From Candidatus Omnitrophota bacterium (GTDB taxonomy: Bacteria; Omnitrophota; Gorgyraeia; Duberdicusellales; 4484-171), in the NCBI GenBank assembly GCA_021735655.1, contig JAIPGM010000004.1, positions 32,001 to 96,000 of the forward strand: a stretch of DNA of 64,000 nucleotides, given 5' to 3'. Each line of letters starts with the position of its first letter. The stretch's first letter is position 1. Under the pieces are notes generated by a model. The model was not told where the DNA came from, did no database searches, and worked only from the letters and a program-made list of their open reading frames with translations. Positions 27,251 to 59,155 of this stretch are shown here, piece after piece. The translations under genes and the position numbers were made by a program.

Positions 27251-28044
27251 TGCAACTCCTTAATACATGAAGAGAACATCTCTGGACCAAAAATACTTTT
27301 TTCTTTAACAAATCCTAAAAGTAAAACTCGATCACAAAGCATATTAACTAAACGAGGAATCCCTTTAGAAAATTCATAAATTAACTTAAAAGACTCTGGG
27401 GCAATTACGATATGTTCAGCCTCAGCTTGTCTTAACCGAAAATTAACATACCGCTCCACTTCAGCCTGGTTTAAAGGACTAAGGTTATGTTTTACGAAAA
27501 TACGTTGATGTATTTGTCGTAAATCAAACCGATTAAGCTTTTCAGTCAACTCCGGCTGGCCAACAAGAACAATTTGCAACAACTTATCAGTTGAAGTTTC
27601 TAAGTTAGAAAGTAGGCGGATTTGTTCTAACTGACGATTGCTTAAATCCTGAGCTTCATCAATAATGACTACTGCCTTTTCACCCCTCAAATTAATATCG
27701 ACCAAAAAAGAATTTAGGGCATTGACAATATCGAGACGGGTTTTCTTTTTAAGCTTCAAACCAAAATCCTCTACTATTGCTCGCAATAACTGAACCTCGC
27801 TAAAATAAGGATTAAGGATCAAAGAAGTCCTAGTGTTAGCCGAAATTCGATTAAGAAAAGCCTTACAAAGAGTAGTTTTACCTGTCCCTACTTCGCCAGT
27901 GATAAGAATAATGCCTTTTTTCTCTTGAACTCCATAAGATAACGCCGCCAATGCTTCCTTGTGAGATAAGCTCTCAAAGAAAAATTGTGGATCAGAAGTA
28001 ATATTGAAAGGTATCTTTTTTAAACCGTAAAGTTCTAGGTACAT
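27247..28044 (-). CDS. ExeA/GspA/MshM-like AAA+ ATPase
   Basis: Walker A ITGEVGTGKTTL; Walker B VVIIDEAQ; 265 aa. Adjacent to the secretin gene. Confidence 0.75.
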   Translation of the reverse strand: MYLELYGLKKIPFNITSDPQFFFESLSHKEALAALSYGVQEKKGIILITGEVGTGKTTLCKAFLNRISANTRTSLILNPYFSEVQLLRAIVEDFGLKLKKKTRLDIVNALNSFLVDINLRGEKAVVIIDEAQDLSNRQLEQIRLLSNLETSTDKLLQIVLVGQPELTEKLNRFDLRQIHQRIFVKHNLSPLNQAEVERYVNFRLRQAEAEHIVIAPESFKLIYEFSKGIPRLVNMLCDRVLLLGFVKEKSIFGPEMFSSCIKELQ

Positions 28045-28077
28045 CTTTAGGCTCTATTGATGAAATCAGAAAGAAAA

Positions 28078-29610
28078 CTATTTTTCCTTCTTTTCATTTA
28101 GATTAAACTGAACCGGTATCTGACTTGCCCTTATAAGATCTTGACCGAATATTTCACCAGGCTGTACGATTTCAGCGGTGATAAAAATTAACAAATCAAT
28201 CTTATCAATGTCTTCGGTTTGACGCTTAAATAACCAACCAATTAAAGGTATCTTGCTTAAATAAGGTATACCAATATCATACCTGCTTTTTACATCTTTA
28301 AGCAAACCACCAATGACAATCGTCTCGCCGTCTTTAGTTATTACTTGAGTTTCTGCTTCTCGAGATGTAAGCCAAGGATAAGAAACAAGGGTGGTTTGAT
28401 TTTGATCAACGACTCCGATGTCACTTAAACGAGCGGTAACCGCCGGATGGACAATCATACTGATAAAATCTTCGTTCTCGCCGCAAATCTGAGGCACAAC
28501 ATTAAGTTGAATTCCAATATCCTGATAGAAATCTAGAGAACCGCCAGTAATCTGAGAAGTTTCACTACTGGTTTCGGTTTTAACAATTGGGTATTTCTGT
28601 CCAACAAGAATAGATGCTTCCTGGTTATTCAGAGTAAGGATTACCGGCGCCGAAAGCGTATTAGTCCGAACATCTTCCTCAAGAGCATGAATTATCATCT
28701 CAAACTCAGTACCAGTAAGCTTACGGTACAAAAATTGATAAGCATTAGAAGTGATACCGCTTGCCCCGGAAGGTGTTGATGATATTGAAGGTATCGGAGA
28801 TATCGCCCGAATTGCTGCCTGGCCAATAAGATCACCGGCACTATTTTTATCAGCATCTACATATTGAGCTGAGCTTGCAGTCGCTCCGGTTGTACCAGTT
28901 CCCCAGTCAAGACCAAAATCTTCAAGCACGTCTTTACTAACCTCCATAATCCTGGTTTTTATCAAAATCTGTTTCGGCATAACATCAATTTTTTCAAAAA
29001 GGGTATCTATCTCATCTAATTTCTTAGCAATATCGGAAACAACCATTATCTTAGTCCGAGAGGTTTTTCCTTCTTTGACTCTTTGTCTTTTAGTAACATC
29101 GGTACCAAACTCCCAACCAGCCTGGCCAGTAGTTTCTAAAACTGAAATTCTTCCCATCGGAGAAAGTAACGGCTCAATCATTTTCCTAGCATCATTAGCA
29201 TCGATGAATTTTAAGCGATAAACTTTAGTCCGAGCAGGCTCCACCTCCTGACGCTCTTTAGCTGAAGCTTCTCTTCCGCTTATCTTTTCAGTAGTGTCTA
29301 CCAAAACTATATTTTCTCCGACCCACTCATAACTATAATTATAGGGGCGGATGACTGCCTCAAGGGCAGTAAACCAATCTACTTGCTCTAAATTTATACT
29401 AACTAAACCTTGAACCTCGGGACTCACCACTATGTTGATTTTTTGACCTTCTTTGTAAGCTTTTTGAGCTATTGACTGAAGAACAATTTTGATGTCGACA
29501 TCTTTAAACTTAATTACCGATATTGACTCATTTTGAGCACACACAAAGCTAGCCGGGATCAAACAACAAACAATAAACAATAATATAATTGATTTTTTAT
29601 ATTTTTTCAC
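28078..29610 (-). CDS. pilQ: Type IV pilus / T2SS-type outer-membrane secretin
   Basis: Signal peptide, STN-like N-terminus (VIKFKDVDIKIVLQSIA), secretin C-domain (NQEASILVGQKYPIVKTETS...LLIFITAEIV). Confidence 0.85.
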   Translation of the reverse strand: MKKYKKSIILLFIVCCLIPASFVCAQNESISVIKFKDVDIKIVLQSIAQKAYKEGQKINIVVSPEVQGLVSINLEQVDWFTALEAVIRPYNYSYEWVGENIVLVDTTEKISGREASAKERQEVEPARTKVYRLKFIDANDARKMIEPLLSPMGRISVLETTGQAGWEFGTDVTKRQRVKEGKTSRTKIMVVSDIAKKLDEIDTLFEKIDVMPKQILIKTRIMEVSKDVLEDFGLDWGTGTTGATASSAQYVDADKNSAGDLIGQAAIRAISPIPSISSTPSGASGITSNAYQFLYRKLTGTEFEMIIHALEEDVRTNTLSAPVILTLNNQEASILVGQKYPIVKTETSSETSQITGGSLDFYQDIGIQLNVVPQICGENEDFISMIVHPAVTARLSDIGVVDQNQTTLVSYPWLTSREAETQVITKDGETIVIGGLLKDVKSRYDIGIPYLSKIPLIGWLFKRQTEDIDKIDLLIFITAEIVQPGEIFGQDLIRASQIPVQFNLNEKKEK

Positions 29611-29981
29611 TATTCCTCCAGTTCTAAAGTAAACCCTTGGTTATTTTTCTCTAGAATAACTTTCCTTCTTTCAATAGTTAAGACTTTATACTCACCAATC
29701 ATGTCTCCGATTTTAACTACTTCATTATTAATAATTGCCACTGATTCTTCTTCAGAGTATATTATACCTCCTAATTCCATGTTTGTAACGTCTGTTTCGC
29801 GAGGTATAAGAATTAGCCCATTTCGGCTAACTAAAGGGACAAACGGATCCCGGCTATTTAGCCCAAAAGAATATTTTTCTAAACTCGCATCGGTGGTCGC
29901 CGTTTGAGAGAATCCCAAAGTCGGCAAAACCAACAATAACGAAATAAAAAATACAACTATTACTTTTCGGCTATCGCGCAT
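29610..29981 (-). CDS. PilP-like pilus assembly lipoprotein/periplasmic protein
   Basis: 123 aa with signal peptide; its position between pilO and pilQ; beta-domain shared with the 26750-27250 ORF. Confidence 0.45.
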   Translation of the reverse strand: MRDSRKVIVVFFISLLLVLPTLGFSQTATTDASLEKYSFGLNSRDPFVPLVSRNGLILIPRETDVTNMELGGIIYSEEESVAIINNEVVKIGDMIGEYKVLTIERRKVILEKNNQGFTLELEE

Positions 29982-30499
29982 ACTACTATTTCTATAGAAT
30001 TATAAGGGTAATCTGAAGAAACTTTTAACTCTTTAATATCAAAAAAATATTGGCTAGTTTGAAGATATTCCAAAAATAAAGCTAAGTTATGAAATTTAGC
30101 TTTGGCCTCTATACTGATTGGCAAATAGAATAAATTCTCTTCCGATTCCGCAAGATAGTTAATCAATTCGCCAGGGAGAAAAGACTTTATCTCTACCCCA
30201 AACTCCTTGCTAGCGGTTGAAATAAAAGATAGTGATTCTGAAGCTTCCTGAGAAAGAATGAGCTTGCTTCGACTATTCTCTATTTGATTTTTAAGCTCTT
30301 GATTAACCTTTGAATACTCATTAAGCCTAGGCCAATCATTCTCGGTGCTCTTAATTTGCTGACCGATTAAAGCGATTTTCTTATTAAGGCCAATCACTCT
30401 CTTTATGCTCCAAGGAAGCAAAATCAGTATTTCAATTACAATGACCGCGATTAAAAGTGAAAACGCAATTATTTTTTTATCAAAATTTATTTTTTGCAT
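29960..30499 (-). CDS. PilO-like inner-membrane pilus assembly protein
   Basis: Single N-terminal TM plus coiled coil, 179 aa; its position in the pilMNOPQ order. Confidence 0.5.
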   Translation of the reverse strand: MQKINFDKKIIAFSLLIAVIVIEILILLPWSIKRVIGLNKKIALIGQQIKSTENDWPRLNEYSKVNQELKNQIENSRSKLILSQEASESLSFISTASKEFGVEIKSFLPGELINYLAESEENLFYLPISIEAKAKFHNLALFLEYLQTSQYFFDIKELKVSSDYPYNSIEIVVCAIAEK

Positions 30500-31050
30500 T
30501 CGACAATGAATTTTAGAACCTCAGCATTATTGAAATTTTCCTTTTGGGATTCCTTTATTTCAACTACCGAGAATTGTGAAGAAAAGTACTCTCGCTCACG
30601 CAAAGATCTAATAAAATCATTTAAAGATACTAAAAAATCTTTATTCCATTTCACCACATAGCCTTGAATTTCTAGAGTTCCTTCCTGAAAATCTAAATTT
30701 TGAAACCATATGTTTTTAGGTAGTGAGAAAAAAATATCCCCTAAAATAAGGGACATTTTATAGCGCGGGGTTAAAACTTTATCTAACCTGTCGCGTTTTG
30801 TTTTTAAATTATTGGTTTGCTGCTTGATATCCTGCAGGGTTTTAGCTTTTGACTCCCATTGCTGCCAATTTTTAGCCTCAGAAGAGTAAGTATGGGCCTT
30901 TTTCAAAGCTATTACCTGAAGCAATAAAACCATGGCCAAGCCAACAATGGCAACCACAATCAACAAAGGAAGATAGGCGATTAAATTTCCTAAATCTAAT
31001 TTCATCGCCTTTTGTTTTTGAGGACTTAAATTTATAACTACTTTTTTCAT
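30487..31050 (-). CDS. PilN-like inner-membrane pilus assembly protein
   Basis: Single TM (LPLLIVVAIVGLAMVLLLQVIAL), 187 aa; directly downstream of the pilM-like gene. Confidence 0.55.
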   Translation of the reverse strand: MKKVVINLSPQKQKAMKLDLGNLIAYLPLLIVVAIVGLAMVLLLQVIALKKAHTYSSEAKNWQQWESKAKTLQDIKQQTNNLKTKRDRLDKVLTPRYKMSLILGDIFFSLPKNIWFQNLDFQEGTLEIQGYVVKWNKDFLVSLNDFIRSLREREYFSSQFSVVEIKESQKENFNNAEVLKFIVECKK

Positions 31051-31063
31051 GCTAATAAATACA

Positions 31064-32194
31064 TTATAAAATCAAACCGAAGGCGGCCGAAAAACTACTC
31101 TTAAAGTGATTAAACCGCTCATCTAGGATTTGACCGTCTAGTTTTTTTAAAAAGCTAGGGATATTTGGCAAAAGGCTCACCTCTACATCTAAGGCTTCAG
31201 CAAAAACACTCTCAATATCTTTAATCGAAGCTAACCCGCCGGTCAAATAGACTTTATCTATATGTTCACCTTTGTTAACTTCGAAATAATCAAAAGAGCT
31301 TTTCATTTCCTTGCAAAGCCCCGAGATGCCGCTTTGAATAAATTCCAGAAATTCGCCAGCATCAGGAGAACTCACAAGTTGCTTTTCAACCTCACCTGGC
31401 TTCAAACCTTTGGTCCGAGCTACGATCGCCACTATATCTTTTGTGCTGAATTTGACATCCCGAGTTAGAAAAGGAACCCCTTTATTTACGATCGTCATAA
31501 CCGAGAAACTACTGCCAATGTCTAAAATGCAAGAATTAATCTCCTTGTTATCGCTACAGTTATCGAGAAAAAGATTGAAGATGCAAATGCTATCTAAATT
31601 TATCTCAGATACTTCTACTCCGAGTGTTTTAAAAGCTTCCAAAATATTATCGATATAATCCTTCTTGGCGACGGCTAGCAAAATTGATAGCTCTGTTGGG
31701 CTGGCATCTTTTAAAATATAATAATCAAAATACACCTCTTCCGGAGAAAAAGGAATATGCTTATTCAGCTCATAGAAAAGTGCCTGCTCTAATCTTTTCT
31801 TCTCCATTTTAGGAAAGGAAAAATAACGCACTAGACAACTCGGATTCTTAATAGAAATCTTGACTGATTTGGCAGAAATCTTCTTTTGAGCCCAGACTTT
31901 TCCAAGAGTTTTAACTAAATCTTCATTCGGTTCAATAAAATAATCAGAAAGGCTATCTCCTTTAAAAATTAGCCCTTTAAGGTAGTAATTTCCAATGTTT
32001 AAACCTACCGTGGGCCTAGCTTCAGTTTTAAGAAAATCATTCGGCCGGAGAATTTTTCTAACCTGTTCTTTAAATTGGCTAATCGGTAAGGATTTTTTGA
32101 ATCGCTTCAAAACAGACTGCGATTGAATTGCTTTTAGAAAAACATTAGCCTTGATCATCATATATATACTATTATAGTCATTACGGCTTGTCAA
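31064..32194 (-). CDS. pilM: PilM-like actin-fold pilus assembly ATPase
   Basis: 376 aa, VGLNIGNYYLK and ILDIGSSFSVM (actin/FtsA-like phosphate loops); first gene of the MNOPQ order. Confidence 0.7.
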   Translation of the reverse strand: MTSRNDYNSIYMMIKANVFLKAIQSQSVLKRFKKSLPISQFKEQVRKILRPNDFLKTEARPTVGLNIGNYYLKGLIFKGDSLSDYFIEPNEDLVKTLGKVWAQKKISAKSVKISIKNPSCLVRYFSFPKMEKKRLEQALFYELNKHIPFSPEEVYFDYYILKDASPTELSILLAVAKKDYIDNILEAFKTLGVEVSEINLDSICIFNLFLDNCSDNKEINSCILDIGSSFSVMTIVNKGVPFLTRDVKFSTKDIVAIVARTKGLKPGEVEKQLVSSPDAGEFLEFIQSGISGLCKEMKSSFDYFEVNKGEHIDKVYLTGGLASIKDIESVFAEALDVEVSLLPNIPSFLKKLDGQILDERFNHFKSSFSAAFGLIL

Positions 32195-32210
32195 CGCAAT
32201 AGGAAGAATT

Positions 32211-32669
32211 TTACTCTACTTCGGAAAAGCCAACAGGACAACTTGTTCCGATATGAATATTTGGGGCAGGAGTGTTTACAGAATTAGATCTACAAAGAAG
32301 ACCGTCCTCGTCAATATAATAAGTTTTAGCTTGAGCTAAATTCTGCGGTGTGGCCGTAGCGTAGAAATCAATGTAAGTATTAGGAACCGCTTTAATAATA
32401 TATTCCTGCTTTATGCCGCTAGCTAAAGAAACGTCAATATAGGGAGGCTGGGCAGAAGCTAACTCCTGTAAAGTTGCATATTCCGGGTTAGTTGCCCGCC
32501 ACTGCACTTCAGCAGAACAAACAATGCGAAGAAGATTCGCCGAAATAGCTGCTCGGGCAGACATCCGCGAACGCAATAAATTAGGTATAGCCAAAGCTGC
32601 CAAGACAGATATTATGGTTACAACTATCATAAGCTCCATGAGAGTTATGGCCTTTTTTAATTTTTCCAT
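32211..32669 (-). CDS. Type IV (pseudo)pilin, paralog B of the major pilin
   Basis: Class-III signal/N-terminal helix KKAITLMELMIVVTIISVLAALAIPNLLRSR; C-terminal disulfide loop CRSNSV...CPVGF. Paralogous to 35328-35777 (shared blocks ATNP.YA.L, PPYID, YYIDEDG.LCRS). Its start overlaps the OST gene end by 13 nt. Confidence 0.8.
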   Translation of the reverse strand: MEKLKKAITLMELMIVVTIISVLAALAIPNLLRSRMSARAAISANLLRIVCSAEVQWRATNPEYATLQELASAQPPYIDVSLASGIKQEYIIKAVPNTYIDFYATATPQNLAQAKTYYIDEDGLLCRSNSVNTPAPNIHIGTSCPVGFSEVE

Positions 32670-35203
32670 TTTATCTTAAAAGCATAAAGGTTAGCTTTAT
32701 CTAACGCTATAAACGGTTCAAAGTAATCAAGAGTCTTTGCTTTTGTAAAATAAAGCTTAGCAAGCAAGCTCTCGCCTAAAGCTTTATTCGAAACTCCGAT
32801 ACATTTCCACTGACCGTTATCCTTAAAAAAGAAACCACCAGAATTAAATCGCATTGGCTGGCTCATTTTAGATTCATTATAGGTCAAGTTGTCGCCATCA
32901 AAAATAAAAGTAAAACTAAGCTCTTTGAATTTTTTTTCCGGCTGTTGAAACATCGTAGCCCGAGAACTATTCAGAGCTAAAACTATGCCATTGTCAAAAT
33001 AAACAGTTCCTGAATCCTCCCTACCTGCCGCCAAATAAAGCGGAAATGTCCACTTCTCAGAAACTACCTCGTTTACCTCTCGGCCAATTCTAGAAAACAT
33101 TACCTCTTCGTAAAGAAGTTCTGCTTCTGACTGCTTTAAACCAAACACCCGAAAAAGATTATTAATCACTTCCAACTTCGGCAGATCTTGATGCTTGATT
33201 ATATAAACTTTGGCAAAATTCCAATTACCTAAAAAAGAAATGGCTGAAATTTTATAGATCATGGTCTCATCAATAAACAAATAGGCTGGTGCCGGAATTT
33301 TAACAAAAATTACATCTTTTATTTTCTTAGCTAATCCTTTAGGTATTTTGTACTCTTTAAAAATAGCCTCGATATTTTTTTCTTCAGATCTCAATATCTT
33401 ATTAAGAAAAACAATTGAGGAAAAGTCGTCACCAAGGAAAGAATTAATTTGATCAAAAAGTGCGTCTGAAGAATTATTGATCATACGTAAAATTCGTACA
33501 GCTTCCTCTTCGTTACCAGCCAAGAAAACCCTCGCCATCCAATAAGTAATCGGTGCATCTTGAATTTGTGGGTCGACTAAGGTACGTCGATTAGCTATCT
33601 CTTTAAACCAGTTGCCATAATCCCACCAACTATTAATTACGCTATTCTCAGGTGTTTTTTCCTTTATTTGGATCATAAGATCATACCAACCATCATTAAG
33701 TATTGGAAACTGTATACTGGCTTGAGAAAAGCTTCTTCGCACCGGAATTGAAACTACAAGGCAAATTAAACAAACCGCACTCAAAATAAGGCCACTTCTA
33801 ACCTTATGGCTACTAACGCCTCTTACCCAATTCGGAAGTAACCGCCAGACATCGCCCAAGCTAACACTTAAAAAAATACCTAAAGGCACAAAAAGGAATT
33901 GAGTAAAACGCAACCCTTTTAGGCTGGCAAAAAACATAACAAAGGTCCAACAGCTAAGAATCAATACTATATCTGCCCGCTTGCCTCTTTTCTCTCGCAA
34001 ATATGTCCAAAGCAAACCAAACAAAGACAACATAAATATAGCCCAACCGCCAGTATATACCGGAATACTTGTAAAGCTTCCTTGCTTTAGCTCTGACACC
34101 GTATATAAAACTGAGGGCCAAATCGAGAAAGAAAGAGAGTTGCCCAATCTTAAATTGCTAGCTAAAGAACCATAAAGAAAAGAAAAAGGTTCAACCTTTG
34201 CAATAAGTAAACAAAAAATTACACTCCCCGATAAGAAAACAGCCAGAGAAACTAGATAGGGTGCATTTTTTTTCTTCAGGGTATCTCTATCTTTAAAATG
34301 TAAACAAAAATTATTAGCCAAGGTCGCAAGAAAAAATATAACGATTACCGCGAAAATAAACCACCAACCAACCCAGCTAAAAGCATATAATCCTAAAAGC
34401 AATGAAGCTAATAAAGAGTACTTAACGATTTGTATAAAAGTTTTGCTTTTTAGCCCTATACCAAGAAACCAAACTATCAACAAAGGAAATAAAACATTAA
34501 ATACATCCTGGTCAAACCAACCAGCAGAACTACGATGAATAAACACCGGAGAAAGACCAATAAAGATAATCGCAAATATTCCGGAAATGTTCGAAAAGAA
34601 ATAACGACAGAATAGGTAAAGAACAATACAAAACACAAAGGTAAGGAAAACCGGCAAATAAAAAACAAATTTCTCCAAAGACAGGTTGGGGAAAATAAAT
34701 GAAACTGCCCTATATAAATAGGCTGAAAAATAATAAAGAAACCTCTCAGGTGGAACTAACCCTCCCTGGGGGGCAAGCATAAACTTATCATAGATCTTGC
34801 CGTCTACTATCTTATTTCCCGGATAACCATTTTCTAAGGTAAGCCTAGTAAAACGTTTTCGACAATAAGGATCAACTTCAAGTAAGTAAGTCTGACCACT
34901 ATCATCTTGATATTGTGACTTTAGCCGCTCGTATTCCTTATTAACTCGCAGTTTAAAGCCTTTAGAATTCTTTCTGCCCTCTTTGACTACCTGCTTAGCA
35001 ATTTTTTCCTTTATCAAAGAGTTATAGCCAGGATACTGCTTTTGGGTAAATTCTCGAGCCTGAGAAAGCATCCGATCCTCTATATTAAGATGGGCTCTTT
35101 TCTTAAGTTGGGGAAAGTTGGCCGGAAATAAACGTAGGTAGACATTTAGCCCCAATACAGTTGCGAGGATTAAAAAAATGGTTACTTTTTTTAGCTTATC
35201 CAT
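32657..35203 (-). CDS. STT3/PglB/AglB-family oligosaccharyltransferase (polytopic N-terminal domain + periplasmic C-terminal domain)
   Basis: 848 aa with about 13 predicted TM segments, then SWWDYGNWF...TLVD, matching the PglB hallmark WWDYG...TLVDGG. Acidic loop motifs EVDPY and WFDQD in the external loops. Confidence 0.75.
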   Translation of the reverse strand: MDKLKKVTIFLILATVLGLNVYLRLFPANFPQLKKRAHLNIEDRMLSQAREFTQKQYPGYNSLIKEKIAKQVVKEGRKNSKGFKLRVNKEYERLKSQYQDDSGQTYLLEVDPYCRKRFTRLTLENGYPGNKIVDGKIYDKFMLAPQGGLVPPERFLYYFSAYLYRAVSFIFPNLSLEKFVFYLPVFLTFVFCIVLYLFCRYFFSNISGIFAIIFIGLSPVFIHRSSAGWFDQDVFNVLFPLLIVWFLGIGLKSKTFIQIVKYSLLASLLLGLYAFSWVGWWFIFAVIVIFFLATLANNFCLHFKDRDTLKKKNAPYLVSLAVFLSGSVIFCLLIAKVEPFSFLYGSLASNLRLGNSLSFSIWPSVLYTVSELKQGSFTSIPVYTGGWAIFMLSLFGLLWTYLREKRGKRADIVLILSCWTFVMFFASLKGLRFTQFLFVPLGIFLSVSLGDVWRLLPNWVRGVSSHKVRSGLILSAVCLICLVVSIPVRRSFSQASIQFPILNDGWYDLMIQIKEKTPENSVINSWWDYGNWFKEIANRRTLVDPQIQDAPITYWMARVFLAGNEEEAVRILRMINNSSDALFDQINSFLGDDFSSIVFLNKILRSEEKNIEAIFKEYKIPKGLAKKIKDVIFVKIPAPAYLFIDETMIYKISAISFLGNWNFAKVYIIKHQDLPKLEVINNLFRVFGLKQSEAELLYEEVMFSRIGREVNEVVSEKWTFPLYLAAGREDSGTVYFDNGIVLALNSSRATMFQQPEKKFKELSFTFIFDGDNLTYNESKMSQPMRFNSGGFFFKDNGQWKCIGVSNKALGESLLAKLYFTKAKTLDYFEPFIALDKANLYAFKIKWKN

Positions 35204-35215
35204 ATCTTTATCGAT

Positions 35216-35243
35216 ATTTTACCATACTAAGTTTAAATCGCAA
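35216..35243 (-). promoter_or_regulatory. Candidate sigma70-like promoter for the OST gene (TTGCGA-16 bp-TAAAAT on the minus strand)
   Basis: Minus-strand TTGCGA (35243-35238) and TAAAAT (35221-35216), between the pilin A terminator and the OST ATG at 35203. Confidence 0.25.
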
Positions 35244-35279
35244 TAACCGGATTGACTTTAAAGGCGGGTCGTAAAAATA

Positions 35280-35304
35280 ATAAGGCGGTGGGAATCCCAC
35301 CGCC
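35280..35304 (-). terminator. Rho-independent terminator downstream of major pilin gene A
   Basis: Perfect 11-bp stem AAGGCGGTGGG-AAT-CCCACCGCCTT flanked by A/T runs on both sides, 24 nt after the pilin stop codon. Confidence 0.55.
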
Positions 35305-35327
35305 TTATTATTTAATCACTTTTTTGC

Positions 35328-35777
35328 TTACTGCATTTCAGCATAACCAGATGGACAAGCATTCGTACCTTCATGAGCTGCGGCAGCAGTGCCAACAGCA
35401 GTAGATCTACATAGAATTCCATCTTCATCTATATAGAAAGAATGACCTTGTGCAGCAGTATTAACTGCTCTAGCTGCAAAAGTCCCATTAGTGTTGTCGG
35501 TAACAACTGAAAAAGTATATCCCTGTTTAGTTCCACCAGCCAAAGTTGTATCAATATAGGGTGGATTCTCACTGCCTAAAGTTGCCAAGGCAGCATAACC
35601 AGGATTAGTTGCTCGATATTGAATCTCAGCGGCAGCAACTGTATGAGCGGCTGCAGCTGCAGCAGCTTCTTGGGCTGACAAACGAGCCCTCAAAAGATTG
35701 GGTATAGCTATCGCCGCTAAAAGAGCAATGATAGCTACAACGATCATAATTTCAACAAGAGTAAAACCTTTCTTCAT
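35328..35777 (-). CDS. pilA: Type IV major pilin (paralog A)
   Basis: MKKGFTLVEIMIVVAIIALLAAIAIPNL, a canonical prepilin leader and N-methylatable F+1. Strong GGAGG RBS. C-terminal CRSTAV...CPSGY disulfide loop. One N-G-T sequon. Confidence 0.9.
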   Translation of the reverse strand: MKKGFTLVEIMIVVAIIALLAAIAIPNLLRARLSAQEAAAAAAAHTVAAAEIQYRATNPGYAALATLGSENPPYIDTTLAGGTKQGYTFSVVTDNTNGTFAARAVNTAAQGHSFYIDEDGILCRSTAVGTAAAAHEGTNACPSGYAEMQ

Positions 35778-35930
35778 CTTAACACCTCCAAATTTTCAAA
35801 TGGCGAGATCCTCTTTTTTAAACTTTTTCACCTCCTTTTCAAAAAAGAACCTCATTAATAAAATAATATAAAGAACACTGTTTCAAGGGCTTAACTTAAG
35901 GCTTCTTGCCTATTTTACCCGACCACTTCA

Positions 35931-35959
35931 AATATAGCATATCGACCTCAGCTTGTCAA
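35931..35959 (-). promoter_or_regulatory. Candidate sigma70 promoter for pilin A (TTGACA-17 bp-TATATT on the minus strand), about 150-nt leader
   Basis: Minus-strand TTGACA (35959-35954) and TATATT (35936-35931), located just after the pilC stop codon. Confidence 0.3.
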
Positions 35960-35976
35960 CGCCAAGACTTAGCTTA

Positions 35977-37191
35977 TCAATGAACTCCGCCAATATATTG
36001 GGTAATTTTGATTATTGGCAAAAATAAAGAAACTACAATGCCACCAACGACTATTCCCAAAAAGCCAATAACTATAGGCTCGATTAAACTTGATAACCCA
36101 GCAACCATAGCATCAGTCTGCTCTTCATAAAATTGAGCTATCTTAGACAACATCTCCTCCAGCCTTCCGCTTTTTTCACCTACCGAAATCATCCTGGTAA
36201 CCATTGGAGGGAAAACTCCGGTTTTTTCTAAAGGAAAAGAAATCGGCTGTCCTTCTTGAATCGCTGTCCGGGACTCCATAACTGCCTCTTCAATAACAAC
36301 ATTTCCTGAGGTCTTGGCTACAATCTCCAAACACTTTAATATCGGAACTCCGCTACGAACCAAAGTAGAAAATGTCCGGGAAAATTTAGCAATCGCTAAC
36401 TTTCTAGCTAAATTTCCAAATACCGGAAGCCGTAAAATAAATTTATGGAAGTTGCGCTTGCCTTTTGGTGTTTTGATATAACGAGTAAAAAGCATGCCGC
36501 CGCCGCCTAAAATAATCAGTAAGCCAAGGATTGATGTTGGCTTTCGGGCCAAATCCGAAAAACTTATCAAAATTCTAGTAGGCAAAGGTAAAACCCCGCC
36601 AAGAGCAGAAAAAATCTCTTTAAAGGTAGGGATTACCTTAAAGATTAAAAACGAAGTTATGGCTATCGCCATAAGAACAATGATTACCGGATAATAAAGA
36701 GCCGAAATCACTTTCTTCCTTAAAGCACTGCTTTTTTCTAAGTAAAATGAAACCCGATCTAAAATCTCCGGCAAATTCCCAGAAGCTTCCGCTGCTTCAA
36801 CCATGCTTAAATAAATATCAGGAAAAACATCCTTATGCCCAGAAAGGCTGGCTGAAAGAGATGTTCCTTCTTTAACCTCGCGCAAAATAGCCCAGATAAC
36901 TTCCTTAAAATAAGCCTGCTCGGTTTGTTCGCCTAGAATGCCCAAACACTCAACTACCGGAATTCCGCTTTCAATTAAAGTAGTGAATTGACGCGAAAAA
37001 ATTACTAAATCATCGGTTTTTATCTTGCCTTTTCTTTTTTTCCTAGCCTTTTCCTTAGTCTCTTCAATTGAAAAAATAATACTCTCTTGGCCATGAAAAT
37101 GCTCAATAAGCTTTTGTTTAGACTCAGCCTCAATAACCCCCTTGGTTGTTTTTCCTTCCTTGTCCTTAACGATATATGAAAATAACTTCAT
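35977..37191 (-). CDS. pilC: Type IV pilus inner-membrane platform protein (GspF/PilC family)
   Basis: 404 aa, two T2SSF repeats (…GIPVVECLGILGEQ… / …GVPILKCLEIVAKT…), 3 TM segments. Confidence 0.9.
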   Translation of the reverse strand: MKLFSYIVKDKEGKTTKGVIEAESKQKLIEHFHGQESIIFSIEETKEKARKKRKGKIKTDDLVIFSRQFTTLIESGIPVVECLGILGEQTEQAYFKEVIWAILREVKEGTSLSASLSGHKDVFPDIYLSMVEAAEASGNLPEILDRVSFYLEKSSALRKKVISALYYPVIIVLMAIAITSFLIFKVIPTFKEIFSALGGVLPLPTRILISFSDLARKPTSILGLLIILGGGGMLFTRYIKTPKGKRNFHKFILRLPVFGNLARKLAIAKFSRTFSTLVRSGVPILKCLEIVAKTSGNVVIEEAVMESRTAIQEGQPISFPLEKTGVFPPMVTRMISVGEKSGRLEEMLSKIAQFYEEQTDAMVAGLSSLIEPIVIGFLGIVVGGIVVSLFLPIIKITQYIGGVH

Positions 37192-37192
37192 C

Positions 37193-38914
37193 TCACTCCG
37201 AGATTACCCGAATAACTTCCTCTGCCGAAGTTACCCCTTCGCTACATTTTAAAAAACCATCTTCGGCCAAAGATTGGTAACCCTTAAATTCTCGAGCGTA
37301 CTGGATAATCGTTTCCTCAGTTGCTAATTCAATAATCATCTCTCTTATTTTATCATCTAAAAGAATAATTTCCAGTATTGCTACTCTACCTCTATAACCG
37401 CTGTGAGCGCAGTGAGGACAGCCCTTGGCTCGATAAATCTTTTTTGGCTCGTTGTTCCCCATTATTTTACTACTTAATCCAAACCCCAAACGCTTCAATA
37501 AATCCTTATCCGGGATATATCCTTCCTTACATTTAGGACAAAGCTTACGCACTAAACGCTGAGCAGTAAGGGCAACTAACGATGAAGCTAACAGGAATGG
37601 CTCTGTACCCATATCGCGCAGACGAGCTATTGCTCCCACTGCGCTATTGGTATGAAGAGTAGAAAGTATGGTCTCGCCGGTTAAAGAAGCTTTAATCGCT
37701 GTGTCGGCAGTCTCAGCATCTCTGATTTCACCAACCATAATTACATCCGGTGATTGACGCAAAACCGACCGTAAACCAGCAGAAAAAGTTAAGCCGATTT
37801 CAGCATTAACTTGAATTTGAGTTATACCTTCTAAATGATACTCAACCGGCTCTTCAATAGTTATAATATTTTTATCAGTCGAGTTAATCTGATTAATGAT
37901 TGAATAAAGAGTTGTTGATTTACCGCTTCCAGTTGGCCCAGTAACTAACATTATTCCAAAGGGAGCTTTGATTGCCTCTTCAAACAAAGCCAGCGGCCCG
38001 GGCGAAAACCCTAGTTTTTTTAACCCTATCGATAAGCTCTCTCTATCGAGCACCCGGAGAACAAACTTCTCGCCAAAGTGGGTAGGTAAACTAGAAACTC
38101 TAAAATCTATTTCCCGAGACTCAAATTTAACCCGAAATCTACCGTCTTGAGGAAGCCGCGACTCAGTAATGTCTAGAGATGAAATGATCTTCAAGCGAGC
38201 AATTACGGCTTGCTGGCTGGTTTTAGGAAAACTAAACTCATCGGCCAAGGATCCATCTACTCGATAACGAATTAATAATTTATCTTCACAAGGCTCAATA
38301 TGGATATCTGATGCCCGCTTCTTTAAGGCATTATAAATAATAACATCAATTGCTCTCACGACCGGAGGATGCTTGCTTTCTGAAATTGAACTCTCTAGAT
38401 CTTGTTTAGACTCTTGATGCAACAATCCTTCGCCAACCGAATCAAGAGATACATCGCTACTAAGGGTTTCGGAAATATGTTCAGCCGACTTGTATAAAAA
38501 ATTTATGGCTCTACTTATATCCTTCTCACGAGAAAGAACCAAATCAACCTTTTCGGCATTGGTAATAATCTTTATGTCGTCATGAGTAATAACATCTAAA
38601 GGATTGGCTGTGGCCAAAGTCAGAACATTGCCGATCTTGCATAAAGGAAGAACCTTATGCTTAATTGCTATATCTTTAGGTAATAGCTCTTGATTCTTGT
38701 AAGGTAGTTTATATTTTTTTAAATCAAGAAAAGGGATCTTAAGTTCTTTGGAAAACATCAATAAGAGCTCTTCTTCGCTGATAAGCCCGCTCTCAATCAA
38801 AAGGCTCCTTAAATCAGCATAGGTACGAGCTCGTTTGGCAATATCGATAAGGACCTTCTTGTCACATTTTTTGTCCTCTTGAATGTACTTTATTATCTTC
38901 TCTTTTATGGTCAT
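37193..38914 (-). CDS. pilB: Type IV pilus assembly ATPase (GspE/PilB family) with N-terminal T2SSE_N/MshEN-type domain
   Basis: Walker A GPTGSGKST, Asp box, His box, tetracysteine CPKC...CPHC. 573 aa. Confidence 0.9.
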   Translation of the reverse strand: MTIKEKIIKYIQEDKKCDKKVLIDIAKRARTYADLRSLLIESGLISEEELLLMFSKELKIPFLDLKKYKLPYKNQELLPKDIAIKHKVLPLCKIGNVLTLATANPLDVITHDDIKIITNAEKVDLVLSREKDISRAINFLYKSAEHISETLSSDVSLDSVGEGLLHQESKQDLESSISESKHPPVVRAIDVIIYNALKKRASDIHIEPCEDKLLIRYRVDGSLADEFSFPKTSQQAVIARLKIISSLDITESRLPQDGRFRVKFESREIDFRVSSLPTHFGEKFVLRVLDRESLSIGLKKLGFSPGPLALFEEAIKAPFGIMLVTGPTGSGKSTTLYSIINQINSTDKNIITIEEPVEYHLEGITQIQVNAEIGLTFSAGLRSVLRQSPDVIMVGEIRDAETADTAIKASLTGETILSTLHTNSAVGAIARLRDMGTEPFLLASSLVALTAQRLVRKLCPKCKEGYIPDKDLLKRLGFGLSSKIMGNNEPKKIYRAKGCPHCAHSGYRGRVAILEIILLDDKIREMIIELATEETIIQYAREFKGYQSLAEDGFLKCSEGVTSAEEVIRVISE

Positions 38915-38915
38915 C

Positions 38916-40619
38916 TTATTTTAATGGTTCATCTGGCGCAGTAACTTTAAGTACTTCTTCTAAAGTAGTAATTCCTTTTTCGACTTTCAAAATTCCATCC
39001 TGGCGCAAAGTACGCATACCTAGGTTACGGGCTTTTTTCTTAATGATACTTTCTGAAGCCGAAGAGTTTACTAAATTTTTTATTTGTTGATCAACGTGCA
39101 GATACTCACAAAGGGCAACTCTTCCCTTATAGCCAGTATTCTGGCAATTTCTACAGCCTTTTGATTTATAAATTAAAACTTCTTTATTAATAAGATATCG
39201 CTCGCGAACCGAATCAGATAATTCAAATTCCTCTTTACACTTAGGACACAACATTCGCACTAAACGCTGAGTGAGCACCCCAACCAATGTCGAAGAAAGC
39301 AAAAATGGCTCAACTCCCATATTAATAAGACGAGTGATTGAACCTGCGCTGGTCGTAGTATGAAGTGTGGAAAGAACTAAGTGCCCGGTTAAAGCTGACT
39401 TTATGGCCATGTCAGCAGTGTCAGCATCTCTGACCTCACCGATCATTATTATGTCCGGATCCTGACGCAATATTGAACGTAAACAGGCAGAAAAAGTCAA
39501 ATGAATCGAAGGATTAATACTGGTTTGGTTGATCCCTTTTAATTGGTATTCTATCGGATCTTCTACGGTAACTATGTTCTTCTCCGGTGCGTAAACATGT
39601 TTAATCACCGAATAAAGGCTGGTGGTCTTACCGGCCCCAGTAGGACCACAAACCAAAAGAAGACCGTGAGACTTAAGACTATCTTCCCGTAACTGTTTTA
39701 AAACATCTTCTTCAAACCCCAAAAGATCCAAATTAAGTAAAGCAGTTGCCTTATCTAAAACTCTAATCGCGACTTTTTCTCCAACACTAGTAGGAAGAAC
39801 TGAAACTCGAAAATCAACATTTTTATTTGAAATTCTGCTCCGAAATCTTCCTTCTTGAGGCAAACGGTGTTCGGCAATGTTTAAATTACACATTACCTTT
39901 ATCCGTGATATAGCAAAAGGATGAATTTTTTTTGAAAAGGTATCGATTTCTTGCAAAATTCCGTCAATCCGAAATCGAATCCGACTTACGTTTTCTAAGG
40001 GTTCTATCAGAATATCTGAAGCGGCCTCTTCAACTGCCTTAGTTAAAAAAGAATTGGTAAACTTTATTACCGGAGCCTCTTCAATTGAACGGACGATTTC
40101 TTCTTGAGTTACTTCCTTTTTGACCTTTTTTACAAACTCTAAGCTTTCGGCATGCTGCCCCTTAATAATATCCTCAATCGAAACCATATGGACCTGAGAA
40201 TAATGCATTGAGATGGCTTCTTTTATTTCTGAAAGCGGGGCAATTATCGGATTTACTTCACACTTAGTAATTTTTTTAATATCGTCAATAACTAAAATAT
40301 CTAAAGGATCACCCATGGCCAAGGTTAAGGTGTTGCCAATCTTGCCGATTGGTAAAACCTTATGGTCTCGGGCGACTCTTTCCGGAACTAAAGATATGAT
40401 CTCCTTGGGAATATTAAGATTAAGGATTCGAACCGGTGGGATTGAAAGATAGCTAGATAGTAAATCGAGAAGATCTGGTTCTTTTATGTAGCCTAACTGC
40501 ATAAGCTGCTCAACTAAAGAACCGCCCTTCTCCTTGTGGACGACTAAGACTTTATCTAAATCCTGTTTAGTTAAAAGTCCTTTTTCTAATATGTAATCGG
40601 TAAATTTTTTACTCTTCAT
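38916..40619 (-). CDS. Second GspE/PilB-family secretion ATPase paralog with N-terminal T2SSE_N domain
   Basis: Walker A GPTGAGKTT, CPKC...CRNC; 567 aa. Its N-domain IGNTLTLAMGDPLD matches the one in the standalone ORF. Confidence 0.9.
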   Translation of the reverse strand: MKSKKFTDYILEKGLLTKQDLDKVLVVHKEKGGSLVEQLMQLGYIKEPDLLDLLSSYLSIPPVRILNLNIPKEIISLVPERVARDHKVLPIGKIGNTLTLAMGDPLDILVIDDIKKITKCEVNPIIAPLSEIKEAISMHYSQVHMVSIEDIIKGQHAESLEFVKKVKKEVTQEEIVRSIEEAPVIKFTNSFLTKAVEEAASDILIEPLENVSRIRFRIDGILQEIDTFSKKIHPFAISRIKVMCNLNIAEHRLPQEGRFRSRISNKNVDFRVSVLPTSVGEKVAIRVLDKATALLNLDLLGFEEDVLKQLREDSLKSHGLLLVCGPTGAGKTTSLYSVIKHVYAPEKNIVTVEDPIEYQLKGINQTSINPSIHLTFSACLRSILRQDPDIIMIGEVRDADTADMAIKSALTGHLVLSTLHTTTSAGSITRLINMGVEPFLLSSTLVGVLTQRLVRMLCPKCKEEFELSDSVRERYLINKEVLIYKSKGCRNCQNTGYKGRVALCEYLHVDQQIKNLVNSSASESIIKKKARNLGMRTLRQDGILKVEKGITTLEEVLKVTAPDEPLK

Positions 40620-41060
40620 TTAAGGGTAGAATCTACCTATACCACTACGTATGTCTGAAGGGGTACTAACAAATATTTGGATATCGCAATGGGTCAGGTC
40701 TTCTAAATCTTCAATGGCATGAATATTAAGAGGATTGGCCATAGCTAAAGTCAAAGTGTTCCCTATTTTATCTATTGGAAGTAAACAATAATGACCGCAA
40801 ACGTTTTTGGGGACTAAAGAAACTACCTCTTCGGAAACTTGATAGTTCTCTAAAGGAAGATAGGGATAACCAAACTGTAAAGACAAGCAATAGGCAATAT
40901 CTTCCTCTTTGGCAAAGCCTAAACTTACAATGACTTCACCGATTAAACCTCCTTGACGTTTCTGGCTTGTTATAGCTTCCTTCAGTTGATCGGGAGTAAT
41001 TACCCCTCTTTCTGCTAAAATCTGCCCCAAAGGCTTATCTATTTTTTTGTGAGATTTCAT
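40620..41060 (-). CDS. Standalone T2SSE_N / MshEN-type domain protein (predicted c-di-GMP-binding)
   Basis: 146 aa. PLGQILAERGVITPDQLKEAITSQ fits the MshEN motif RLGxxLLxxGxIxxxQLxxALxxQ. IGNTLTLAMANPLN is the shared N-domain block. Confidence 0.7.
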   Translation of the reverse strand: MKSHKKIDKPLGQILAERGVITPDQLKEAITSQKRQGGLIGEVIVSLGFAKEEDIAYCLSLQFGYPYLPLENYQVSEEVVSLVPKNVCGHYCLLPIDKIGNTLTLAMANPLNIHAIEDLEDLTHCDIQIFVSTPSDIRSGIGRFYP

Positions 41061-55720: not shown

Positions 55721-55721
55721 T

Positions 55722-56954: not shown

Positions 56955-56961
56955 AACCTTA

Positions 56962-59133: not shown

Positions 59134-59155
59134 TAAGTCTTAGTGTAGCAAAATA

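Follow-up and report, generated by a model that had tools for sequence, protein, structure and literature searches.

We propose that a gene within a type IV pilus (T4P) cluster of an Omnitrophota bacterium encodes an active single-subunit N-oligosaccharyltransferase (OST) of the AglB/STT3 type whose chief substrates would be the surrounding type IV pilins, a reading to which, from sequences and structural models, we give a probability of about 0.62. All the evidence was obtained in silico from metagenome-assembled genomes (MAGs) of uncultured organisms, the window (the whole analysed stretch, 64 kb) belonging to a Candidatus Omnitrophota MAG. This work established the family and the fold of the enzyme, the conservation of its motifs, the synteny and the sequon statistics.

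The pilus cluster around the OST gene

The OST gene lies between two paralogous type IV pilin genes, found as ORFs exactly where the sequence-only reading had placed them, and the cluster is laid out as follows.

26750-28044 (-): AAA_22 ATPase, 265 aa (PF13401, 1.9e-27), and a 166-aa protein; end of the conserved cluster
28078-32194 (-): pilM, pilN, pilO, pilP and pilQ (secretin), assigned by synteny and ortholog matches to PF11104, PF04350 and PF00263
32211-32669 (-): pilin B, 152 aa; N_methyl match 8e-5, Ala replacing Gly at -1
32657-35203 (-): OST, 848 aa; predicted single-subunit STT3/AglB-type N-oligosaccharyltransferase, GT-C, GT66-like
35328-35777 (-): pilin A, 149 aa; PilA-type major type IV pilin, leader MKKG|FTLVE
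35977-37191 (-): pilC platform protein; orthologs with PF00482 (T2SSF), 81% identity to the L001 ortholog
37193-40619 (-): pair of PilB-like assembly ATPases in tandem, 573 aa and 567 aa; MshEN and T2SSE in each (ortholog Pfam)
40620-42380 (-): free-standing MshEN-domain protein, 146 aa, and GAF-GGDEF protein, 439 aa; ortholog PF05157 and PF00990
42663-44497 (-): minor-pilin set, with 135-aa and 209-aa prepilins and a 289-aa DUF7305 protein; N_methyl matches

The pilin-OST-pilin unit is indeed flanked by pilC and pilMNOPQ, and the reported 13-nt overlap between the OST stop codon and the pilin B ATG is seen in the sequence. The MshEN/GAF-GGDEF pair, which heads the cluster, is kept in loci L001, L002, L008 and L095-L099, the PilB-like ATPases are 78-80% identical to those of L001, and the AAA_22 ATPase with its 166-aa neighbour also follows pilQ in L001-L003, L008, L010, L095 and L097. 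The OST had been regarded as a core pilus gene; this view has to be given up, as the near-identical T4P clusters L095 and L097 lack it: the OST is an accessory to the T4P cluster, absent from sister clusters.

Pilins A and B share 50% identity over 150 aa (E=2e-52). The sequence blocks said to unite them are present, except that pilin A has FYIDEDG and not YYIDEDG. Pilin A matches the N_methyl family PF07963 (1.1e-7) and its AF2 model (pLDDT 89.2) adopts a pilin fold, with Thermus PilA4 and the PAK pilin as top fold matches. Orthologs of pilin B lie downstream of the OST in L001, L002, L003, L008, L010 and L015. The count of N-x-S/T motifs given earlier, exactly one in pilin A (N97-G-T) and zero in pilin B, was confirmed.

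Three putative transcription signals and the candidate glycosylation site complete the unit.

35216-35243 (-): weak promoter-like site preceding the OST gene, TTGCGA-16-TAAAAT plus TG; 9/12 match
35275-35313 (-): intrinsic terminator-like hairpin 3' of pilin A; 18-bp stem, 8 GC pairs, then a T-run
35481-35489 (-): N97-G98-T99, sole pilin A sequon; in the model, β1-β2 hairpin turn (residues 95-98)
35931-35959 (-): strong sigma-70-like promoter preceding the pilin A gene, TTGACA-17-TATATT plus TG; 11/12, by consensus match only

The hairpin agrees with the terminator reported after pilin A. A separate OST promoter is weakly suggested by its consensus match only: that site would give a 5'UTR of ~6 nt, and promoter-like matches in the region (16, against 11.3±4.1 expected) show no excess over chance.

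Family, fold and catalytic residues of the OST

By sequence and predicted structure, the 848-aa ORF is a genuine STT3-family N-oligosaccharyltransferase. It matches Pfam STT3 (PF02516, E=2.4e-37), and its AF2 model (pLDDT 89.8, pTM 0.84) retrieved from the PDB with Foldseek only PglB, STT3 and AglB structures at ranks 1-19, the best being 5ogl, 6gxc and 3rce, with a ~10^6 gap in E-value between N-OSTs and DPY19/AftA/ArnT. The β-rich C-terminal domain resembles that of PglB (3aag). An ArnT/PMT-like GT-C with a coincidental WWDYG is thus ruled out, HMM and fold search both giving STT3. The family had been called STT3/PglB, of which the first half stands by PF02516 and fold; the second does not, the sequence being AglB/STT3-like. 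Indeed, archaeo_STT3 (1e-20) outscored PglB (2e-6) among NCBIfam models, and A. fulgidus AglB (2e-18) came before STT3A (9e-16) and PglB (2e-12) in profile searches of the PDB. At 26.8 bits against a cutoff of 1300, the protein is not a PglB equivalog; it also scores far under the curated cutoff of the AglB-type model (73.6 against 450 bits).

The motifs that had been recognized, EVDPY (109-113), WFDQD (229-233), WWDYG (526-530) and TLVD (541-544), are all present. Conservation of the residues below was counted across 89 relatives.

33614-33628 (-): W526-W-D-Y-G530, Ser/Thr(+2)-binding motif; WW 89/89, D528 88/89, G 89/89
34091-34102 (-): T368-V-S-E371, TIXE/SVSE-type motif, external loop 5; T 87/89, V 85/89, E 89/89
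34505-34513 (-): D231-Q-D233 (WFDQD), second acidic DxD motif; D231 86/89, D233 88/89
34871-34873 (-): D111 (EVDPY), first catalytic Asp, external loop 1; 89/89

D111 aligned to D47 of A. fulgidus AglB and D49 of human STT3A, D231/D233 to AglB D161xH163 and STT3A D167xE169, and WWDYG to its namesake in both; from the motif alone, T368-E371 would be the counterpart of PglB E319 and the STT3 SVSE motif. R432 is likewise conserved (89/89). The DK-motif Lys is Ser in the window OST and variable across the family, most members of which have a DxxK-type motif.

Synteny and sequons across the OST family

Clustering at 50% identity divides the family into at least 857 groups; our comparison drew on ~100 related loci, 70 of them informative for upstream pilins. 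In 25/70 the OST directly follows a pilC-pilin array or has a pilin ORF immediately upstream, and these pilin-linked loci cover 31-70% identity and are dispersed over several deep clades of the NJ tree. Homologs of the 135-aa minor pilin immediately precede the OST in L023, L035, L037 and L038, and in L025 the whole minor-pilin/DUF7305 trio lies downstream of it.

The 85 unique OST-linked pilins contain 262 N-x-S/T sequons, where shuffling at constant composition gives 127.8±9.6 (z=14), and 135 copies of the reverse motif S/T-x-N; P-values for sequons are overstated here because the pilins are phylogenetically related. Thr prevails over Ser at +2 (180:82), while D/E at -2 is at background level, with no acidic preference. 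Enrichment holds for the pilin that comes first behind pilC (z=3.5) as well as for those further on (z=12.8). Likewise, 116 PilA homologs have 143 sequons against 91.2±8.7 (z=6; reverse motif 79), with hot spots in the αβ-loop, the β-hairpin and the D-region. Sequons also follow the enzyme: PilA carries at least one in 8/8 clusters where an intact OST lies next to it and in 1/5 where this is not so (Fisher p=0.007, Mann-Whitney p=0.005), and three look-ups picked beforehand by sequon count all turned out as predicted. In L003, where the OST has an in-frame stop codon, neither pilin bears a sequon; in L096, a cluster without OST, a pilin bears 2. Conserved synteny, directional sequon enrichment and sequon/OST co-variation together give the OST-pilin link strong comparative support.

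The local case is thin, since chance could supply the lone sequon of pilin A in any 120-residue domain. The pilins of its own clade (the window, L001/L015, L003 and L008) are not enriched, with 5 sequons against 7.2 expected and 13 reverse motifs. Nevertheless, the N97 sequon is conserved as NGT or NET in pilin A orthologs of 87-96% identity: it is kept in every close ortholog with an intact OST, one NET variant included, and is missing in L003. The minor pilins at 43525-44497, with 3 (135 aa) and 4 (209 aa) sequons, would be equally good candidate targets.

Proposed mechanism, rival readings and known systems

We infer OST activity, Asn linkage, the modified pilin, the donor and the expression logic as follows. 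Prepilins would be inserted in the inner membrane with the globular domain on the periplasmic side, where the OST active site would also face, D111, D231/D233 and E371 surrounding a divalent cation, R432 contacting the lipid phosphate and WWD526-528 holding the +2 Ser/Thr. A pre-assembled polyprenyl-phosphate-linked glycan would then be moved en bloc onto the Asn of short N-x-S/T sequons in exposed pilin loops, before pilins are extracted into the fibre. Against this reading count the lack of a sequon in pilin B, the DK-position Ser, the 2-sequon pilin of L096 and the surroundings of the OST in this window, where neither an AglJ-like GT2 nor a flippase nor any other gene for the donor is present. 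The best candidate sites here would be N97 of pilin A and the 3+4 minor-pilin sequons, pilin B remaining unglycosylated. The terminator after pilin A may pass only a fraction of transcripts to OST-pilinB-pilMNOPQ, with pilin B translation coupled to that of the OST.

The OST may instead have only the minor pilins (44090-44497 and 43525-44154) as substrates here, its position beside the flanking pilins being a remnant of an ancestral pilin array-OST-GT2 order. At distant loci, ~115-aa and ~190-aa minor-pilin-like ORFs adjoining the OST bear 5-7 sequons, and pilins in first position behind pilC frequently have 0; the 135-aa minor pilin is homologous to such ORFs, and the window's minor pilins exceed pilins A and B in sequons. 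We consider this unlikely, however: alone, neither excess is significant (3 against 1.3 and 4 against 2.1 expected), and both the persistence of N97-x-T beside intact OSTs and the tie between PilA sequons and OST presence argue against it. Slightly less probable is a general periplasmic N-OST like Campylobacter PglB, serving many envelope clients with pilins as at most one, its place in the T4P operon being incidental in some lineages. Because 45/70 informative loci have no pilin upstream of the OST, the family need not be pilin-specific; its most constant partner is an AglJ/DPMS-like GT2, whose gene immediately follows that of the OST in 55/73 loci, other contexts include mreBCD-rodA (L013) and TPR genes (L009), and the window's own pilins are sequon-poor. 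Yet several deep clades repeatedly show the link to pilins, linked pilins have 2.75 sequons per 100 aa against 0.36 in neighbouring proteins (7.6-fold), none of the non-pilin neighbours at the loci examined is sequon-rich, nor does any non-pilin ORF of at least 100 aa stand out in the 64 kb of genome that the window covers, and PilA sequons are lost where the OST is missing or broken.

It is very improbable that an STT3 fold serves an acceptor other than the sequon Asn (a non-canonical pilin B residue, a lipid or a polysaccharide). Sequon-less pilin B would be translationally coupled to the OST, the DK Lys is replaced, and elsewhere in Omnitrophota a YfhO-type GT-C comes after a pilin array whose pilins have no sequons, so that pilin-linked GT-Cs need not be N-OSTs; but the WWD motif and the metal- and phosphate-binding residues are conserved in 86-89 of 89 relatives, and directional, Thr-preferring enrichment is the canonical N-OST signature. 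The slimmest chance goes to a decaying, functionless relic in a lineage with already sequon-depleted pilins. The clade's sequon deficit, the L003 stop codon and the lost adjacency of the AglJ-like GT2 would fit, whereas the full-length, confidently modelled ORF, the catalytic residues, all retained here and in intact orthologs (63-70% identical), and the persistence of N97-x-T would not.

Pilin O-OSTs (P. aeruginosa TfpO/PilO, Neisseria PglL, Acinetobacter TfpO/PglS) put a lipid-linked glycan on the pilin in the periplasm prior to assembly, and their genes also directly follow the major pilin gene. They belong, however, to the Wzy_C superfamily (PF04932), which the OST does not match, and form O-linkages to Ser/Thr where an N-linkage is predicted here. 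The window's sole Wzy_C protein (52560-53882) is encoded within an EPS cluster and seems to be of an IctB/exosortase-ligase-like type. TfpW, which modifies group IV pilins of P. aeruginosa in the periplasm, is also a GT-C membrane enzyme encoded right after the pilin gene; it is ArnT/Emb-like and transfers D-Araf from a polyprenyl-monophosphate donor onto Thr/Ser, and its class differs from that of the OST: in the fold search, ArnT, AftA and Emb score at least 10^6-fold worse than N-OSTs. PglB (Campylobacter, Desulfovibrio) is, like the OST, bacterial, periplasm-facing and a single-subunit STT3-family member, with the closest folds; the OST differs in its low score with the PglB model and in lying outside any pgl glycan-assembly locus. 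Campylobacter PglB requires D/E-X-N-X-S/T, unlike the pilin sequons here. We know of no action of PglB on type IV pilins and found none in the literature searched.

Archaeal AglB (Methanococcus, Haloferax, Sulfolobus; type IV pilins and archaellins) shares with the OST the single-subunit STT3 family and a short N-x-S/T sequon, the best PDB profile and NCBIfam matches, the DxxK-type motif of most OST family members and their usual AglJ/Dol-P-hexose-synthase-like GT2 partner. The OST differs in its sub-cutoff score and DK Ser, in its diderm bacterial host with PilMNOPQ and secretin, and in being embedded in a pilus operon, which to our knowledge is not normal for archaeal aglB; its lipid carrier is presumably undecaprenyl-type, not dolichol. 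Class-III-signal-peptide pilins are AglB substrates (PMC5131992), as proposed here for the OST. The sequence-only reading held a bacterial N-OST tied to T4 pilins to be undescribed, in line with the literature searched, which yielded no description. This bacterial pilus operon contains an STT3-family N-OST of the archaeal/eukaryotic type with pilins as its suggested targets, a pairing previously described only in archaea.

Gene order and expression signals of the pilin/OST unit

In the window, the oligosaccharyltransferase gene (OST, of STT3 type) stands between two pilin genes, pilin A and pilin B, and this unit is itself placed between pilC and pilMNOPQ. This arrangement had been claimed by the sequence-only reading, and the ORF coordinates bear it out:

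35977-37191, minus strand: pilC, flanking the pilin A side of the unit
35328-35777, minus strand: pilin A, 149 aa (ORF listing)
32657-35203, minus strand: OST, 848 aa (ORF listing)
32211-32669, minus strand: pilin B, 152 aa (ORF listing)
28078-32194, minus strand: pilM-N-O-P-Q, flanking the pilin B side of the unit

Other details of that reading also held: the OST stop overlaps the ATG of pilin B by 13 nt, the two pilins are paralogs (50% identity, E = 2e-52), pilin A contains one N-x-S/T sequon (N97-G-T; nt 35481-35489) and pilin B none, and a terminator-like element, made up of a hairpin of 18 bp and then a T-run, lies 3' of pilin A (35275-35313). The proposed OST-specific promoter is weak and we discarded it: the candidate site is just a 9/12 match with an implied leader of ~6 nt, and promoter-like matches are no commoner in the region than expected by chance (16 vs 11.3±4.1 in shuffles). 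Pilin A has a strong promoter-like site in front of it (11/12, with TG). Expression of the OST may involve read-through of the terminator, and pilin B would be translationally coupled to the OST.

Pilin A has the features of a class III type IV pilin: a short basic leader (MKKG/FTLVE) with Gly at -1, Phe at +1 and Glu at +5, a hydrophobic N-terminal helix and a match to the N_methyl HMM (PF07963, 1.1e-7). Its model consists of α1 at residues 7-57 and a 4-stranded sheet (pLDDT 89.2). Pilin B, assigned to the same class, reads KKA/ITLME, with Ala at -1 (PF07963, 8e-5). This Ala (A7; nt 32649-32651, minus strand) occupies a position where the pilin B orthologs of the related loci L001, L002, L003 and L008 also have Ala or Ser in place of the near-universal Gly, and several orthologs have Ile at +1. 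The prepilin peptidase may process pilin B more slowly than pilin A, or in another way.

The head of the type IV pilus cluster (37193-42380, minus strand) encodes a GAF-GGDEF protein, a free-standing 146-aa MshEN protein and two tandem MshEN-bearing PilB-like ATPases, and no PilT-type ATPase was found within the cluster itself (26750-44497), which together suggests that pilus assembly is under c-di-GMP control. The cluster-head arrangement is also kept in L001, L002, L008 and L095-L099. Just past the end of the cluster, a convergent gene (24088-26730, plus strand) encodes an 880-aa GH94-family glycoside phosphorylase-like protein, found at the same place in L008 and L095.

Family, fold and active site of the OST

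The OST matched the Pfam STT3 family (PF02516; CAZy GT66) with 129.8 bits (cutoff 24.5, E = 2.4e-37) and was barely over threshold for the STT3-PglB core (PF21436, 23.1 bits, cutoff 23). An AlphaFold2 model built with 34 homologs (pLDDT 89.8, pTM 0.84) predicts a GT-C membrane domain and an STT3-fold periplasmic domain, nearer to N-oligosaccharyltransferases (N-OSTs) than to other GT-C enzymes. When the model was compared with the PDB using Foldseek, ranks 1-19 were all PglB, eukaryotic STT3 or archaeal AglB (E 3e-20 to 8e-13), and the other GT-C folds (DPY19, AftA, ArnT, ALG9, PMT, Emb) appeared at E 1e-7 or worse: ArnT at 1e-5, Pmt no better than 5e-3 and Emb no better than 6e-3, where PglB reached 3e-20. 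Since the top 19 ranks are exclusively N-OSTs, and since no PMT or ArnT Pfam match was obtained, an ArnT/TfpW/PMT-like enzyme was rejected; HMM and fold also exclude a non-STT3 GT-C with a coincidental WWDYG. A pilin O-oligosaccharyltransferase of the Wzy_C type (PilO/TfpO/PglL) was rejected as well, PF04932 being absent from the 848-aa protein at E≤1. We regard membership of the STT3 family as nearly certain.

The sequence-only reading had called the enzyme STT3/PglB-like. The HMM and structure checks that it proposed upheld STT3 family and fold, but the likeness to PglB did not stand, because by sequence the OST is closer to AglB/STT3. The best NCBIfam model was archaeo_STT3 (TIGR04154, for archaeal AglB of the archaeosortase-associated type; 1.1e-20, 73.6 bits), still below its cutoff of 450, against 1.8e-6 and 26.8 bits for the PglB equivalog NF050801 (cutoff 1300), and a profile of the OST family matched AfAglB (2.1e-18), STT3A (8.5e-16) and PglB (1.6e-12) in the PDB.

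The motifs listed in the sequence-only reading are all present: EVDPY (109-113), WFDQD (229-233), WWDYG (526-530) and TLVD (541-544). D111 in external loop 1, the first of the catalytic Asp residues, is found in 89/89 family members and aligns with AfAglB D47 and human STT3A D49; the first catalytic Asp of PglB is D56. The second acidic motif, D231-Q-D233 (D231 in 86/89, D233 in 88/89), aligns with D161-x-H163 of AglB (DHH) and D167-x-E169 of STT3A (DNE). In external loop 5, T368-V-S-E371 (E in 89/89, T in 87/89) is probably the TIXE/SVSE equivalent, judging from the motif and its position between transmembrane segments. R432 (89/89) aligns with the conserved transmembrane Arg, and WWDYG with the same motif of AglB and STT3A (W526-W527 in 89/89, D528 in 88/89). 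The Ser/Thr pocket is completed by a DK (DxxK) or MI (MxxI) motif. The DK-type motif is looser in the family: its Asp is D592 in the OST and kept in 76/89 members, its Lys position is K or R in 51/89 and Ser in the OST, and DxxK is found in 3/4 distant outgroup homologs. The residue at the Lys position showed no correlation with sequon-poor or sequon-rich pilins and was dropped as their cause.

The OST itself contains 7 N-x-S/T (4.4 expected), 5 of which (N576, N577, N745, N772 and N776) are in what is predicted to be the periplasmic domain, and N576/N577 belong to an LRM-x-NN motif that hardly varies. PglB is known to glycosylate itself.

Synteny and sequons in related loci

The OST has the same sequence as a protein annotated as hypothetical in a Candidatus Omnitrophica MAG, and the genome-level relatives are Omnitrophota MAGs and single MAGs labelled Margulisiibacteriota and Planctomycetia; a Woesearchaeota protein is among the more distant database matches. 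The family is large: an exhaustive phmmer search of 1.84 billion cluster representatives returned 857 clusters with E≤1e-30, rising to 2600 with E≤1e-3, and a metagenome scan yielded at least 479 relatives. We compared 94 related loci; upstream sequence extended for 1.5 kb or more in 70 of them, and downstream sequence was long enough in 73. Placement of the OST next to pilins recurs among them, as a pilin ORF lies directly upstream in 25/70 loci, usually closing a pilB-pilC-(pilin)1-6 array. Directly downstream, a GT2 gene is present in 55/73 loci (for example L012:8531-9667 and L013:8531-11136). Pilin-linked loci are spread through several deep clades of a neighbour-joining tree, which is indicative only as it carries no support values. 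The order pilC-pilinA-OST-pilinB-pilMNOPQ is common to the window, L001/L015, L003, L008, L002 and L010 (45-70% identity). The OST is missing from two close relatives of these clusters, L095 and L097, which share their flanking genes; it is thus an accessory cassette, and its description as a core pilus gene in the sequence-only reading does not hold.

A further Omnitrophota MAG (GCA_028687345.1, L098:2147-12023) has at least 7 pilin genes followed by a 795-aa YfhO-family GT-C (PF09586), with weak matches to the S. mutans protein O-glycosylation enzymes PgfM1/PgfM2, then a GT2-methyltransferase fusion and a TPR protein. The queried pilin of this locus, P0235, has zero N-x-S/T. The locus looks like a second, distinct pilin-linked GT-C cassette in the position of the STT3 cassette.

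In 85 unique pilins encoded on the OST strand of the 94 loci, mostly in arrays immediately upstream of the OST, the globular parts contain 262 N-x-S/T against 127.8±9.6 in composition-preserving shuffles (z = 14). The reverse motif S/T-x-N, which controls for composition and β-strand periodicity, occurs 135 times in the same pilins. Sequon density is 2.75 per 100 aa in linked pilins vs 0.36 in neighbouring proteins, and no convincing sequon-rich non-pilin ORF was found in the window or the related loci. In 116 PilA homologs of pilin A (50-96% identity), taken as an independent set, we counted 143 sequons against 91.2±8.7, and 79 reverse motifs. These homologs typically have one site each, at a few recurrent positions (58, 69, 88, 97, 126-132 and 144), which on the pilin A model map to the αβ-loop, β1 strand, β1-β2 turn and C-terminal D-region, for the most part exposed and variable regions in type IV pilins.

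The residue at +2 of the 262 sequons is Thr in 180 and Ser in 82, and D/E is found at -2 in 8% of them vs 9% in the background, so that the sequon implied by these putative substrates is of the short archaeal/eukaryotic type and not the extended Campylobacter type with an acidic -2, a property read from the pilins and not from an assayed enzyme. The excess is far stronger in the later, minor-pilin-like array members (190 sequons vs 86.5±8.1) than in the first pilin after pilC (35 vs 20.6±4.1). In the L067-L094 arrays (for example L090:1721-4998 and L071:2184-4992), the tandem near-identical major pilins after pilC have 0 sequons and the OST-nearest pilin-like ORFs of ~125, ~115 and ~190 aa have up to 5-8; glycosylation in these lineages seems to be aimed at minor or tip pilins.

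Loci with and without the OST served as natural controls. Among PilA-type pilins of known context, those with an intact adjacent OST have 1 sequon in the window, L001/L015 and L008, 3 in L010 and L014, and 4 in L002, L012 and L099. Those without one have 0 in L095 and L097 (no OST), 2 in L096 (none in the cluster), 0 in L003 (in-frame TAA in the OST) and 0 in L098 (YfhO-type GT-C instead). PilA sequons were associated with OST presence (Fisher p = 0.007, Mann-Whitney p = 0.005), P-values that are optimistic given the small, phylogenetically related samples. The three contexts looked up last were examined after the pilins had been chosen by sequon count alone, and 3/3 came out as predicted. In L003, the OST ortholog (L003:3644-6190, 67% identical) has its in-frame TAA at a Tyr of the relatives (GMI*KTPSISFLGNW) and both pilins beside it have 0 sequons; in this one assembly, either enzyme and sites decayed together or the stop is an assembly error.

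Possible donor, candidate substrates and meaning of a probable pilin-linked N-OST

The GT2 linked to the OST in other loci best matches AglJ, a haloarchaeal dolichyl-phosphate hexose transferase (TIGR04182, 2.2e-49, below cutoff), and the structure of a Pyrococcus Dol-P-mannose synthase (5mlz), which points to a polyprenyl-monophosphate hexose synthase; it has a C-terminal transmembrane domain. A PgaC/NodC-like second GT2 and an HpnJ-like B12-radical-SAM gene often come next, and the three genes resemble a glycan module of archaeal style that uses polyprenyl monophosphate. None of the three was found by tblastn within the 64-kb window, and the AglJ-like GT2 family proved huge, covering several phyla, with no match recognisable as coming from the MAG of the window. 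A Pfam search of 40 window ORFs for glycan-donor genes near the OST returned just a distant cluster:

51531-63940, minus strand: exosortase-type EPS cluster, holding the only lipid-linked-glycan genes of the window (two Bac_transf, GT4, Wzy_C, Wzz)

The cluster encodes two Bac_transf initiating phosphoglycosyltransferases (61641-62978), a Wzy_C/IctB-like protein (52560-53882), a Wzz-GNVR tyrosine-kinase-like protein, a TPR protein, a large TPR protein, a BBP2 β-barrel porin and a HAMP-GGDEF protein; it might supply the OST with lipid-linked glycan. On the minor-pilin side of the pilus cluster and about 2.5 kb away from it, a UbiA-family prenyltransferase and a divergent PAP2 phosphatase (DUF212) are neighbours (46929-48491, minus strand), a pair that could serve polyprenyl-phosphate carrier metabolism or unrelated quinone/haem chemistry.

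From the directional N-x-T/S enrichment in linked pilins, we infer that the OST transfers a lipid-linked glycan to Asn of N-x-S/T. It would be a single-subunit N-OST facing the periplasm. A glycan assembled beforehand on polyprenyl phosphate would be moved to pilins that are still anchored in the membrane and that PilB/PilC then draw into the fibre. The link between OST and pilins, put forward in the sequence-only reading, is supported by synteny, sequon enrichment and the PilA natural controls, and we give a pilin-directed N-OST a probability of roughly 0.6. Its main competitor is a general N-OST that often merely travels with pilin genes, which we consider improbable, at slightly over one chance in five. 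An acceptor other than Asn, or a decaying relic, are both very unlikely because the active site is invariant, the relic marginally the more so.

As to which pilins a pilin-directed OST would modify in this organism, local sequon evidence is thin: pilins of the window's own clade show no sequon enrichment (5 vs 7.2 expected), and pilin B has no sequon though apparently coupled to the OST. N97-G-T of pilin A is predicted at the β1-β2 hairpin turn and is kept as NGT or NET in 87-96% identical orthologs, being missing in L003, where the OST is broken. Two minor pilins of the window have 3 (44090-44497) and 4 sequons (43525-44154) and are homologous to the sequon-laden minor pilins that adjoin the OST in other loci. 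Minor pilins and pilin A are equally plausible targets; that the minor pilins are the only ones is a minority possibility, to which these counts and homologs lend some weight.

The OST would work as archaeal AglB does on type IV pilins and archaellins, yet it stays below the cutoffs of the curated models for AglB and PglB. Pseudomonas TfpO/PilO (O-oligosaccharyltransferases) and TfpW (a GT-C) are encoded at the same place, immediately after pilA, but the OST belongs to neither family. STT3-type N-glycosylation in bacteria is known from Campylobacterota and some Desulfobacterota (PglB), and to our knowledge glycosylated bacterial pilins are O-linked only (by Wzy_C enzymes or TfpW). The open-access literature and preprints that we searched gave no account of an STT3-type OST that occurs in Omnitrophota or acts on bacterial pilins.

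Somewhat more probably than otherwise, the Omnitrophota, possibly with neighbouring candidate phyla, have a widespread archaeal-type N-glycosylation module dedicated to type IV pilins: an AglB-like OST with a short sequon, usually an AglJ-like GT2, a second GT2 and a B12-radical-SAM protein, forming an accessory cassette at the ends of pilin arrays that is gained and lost together with pilin sequons. If so, this would be the first N-glycosylated type IV pilus in bacteria and a second lineage of bacterial N-OSTs whose sequences differ from that of PglB, and N-glycosylation would gain a further bacterial phylum and another class of substrates. It would also provide new single-subunit bacterial OSTs, apparently with a short eukaryote-like sequon, a property actively sought in glycoengineering (for example PMC12229607).

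The relationship of archaeal AglB with pilins and archaellins would then be reproduced in bacteria, which bears on the co-evolution or inter-domain exchange of N-glycosylation and type IV filaments. Sister clusters with and without the OST, and pilins that have or lack sequons, would offer a natural presence/absence system for asking why pili are glycosylated in nanobacteria presumed to rely on hosts or prey.
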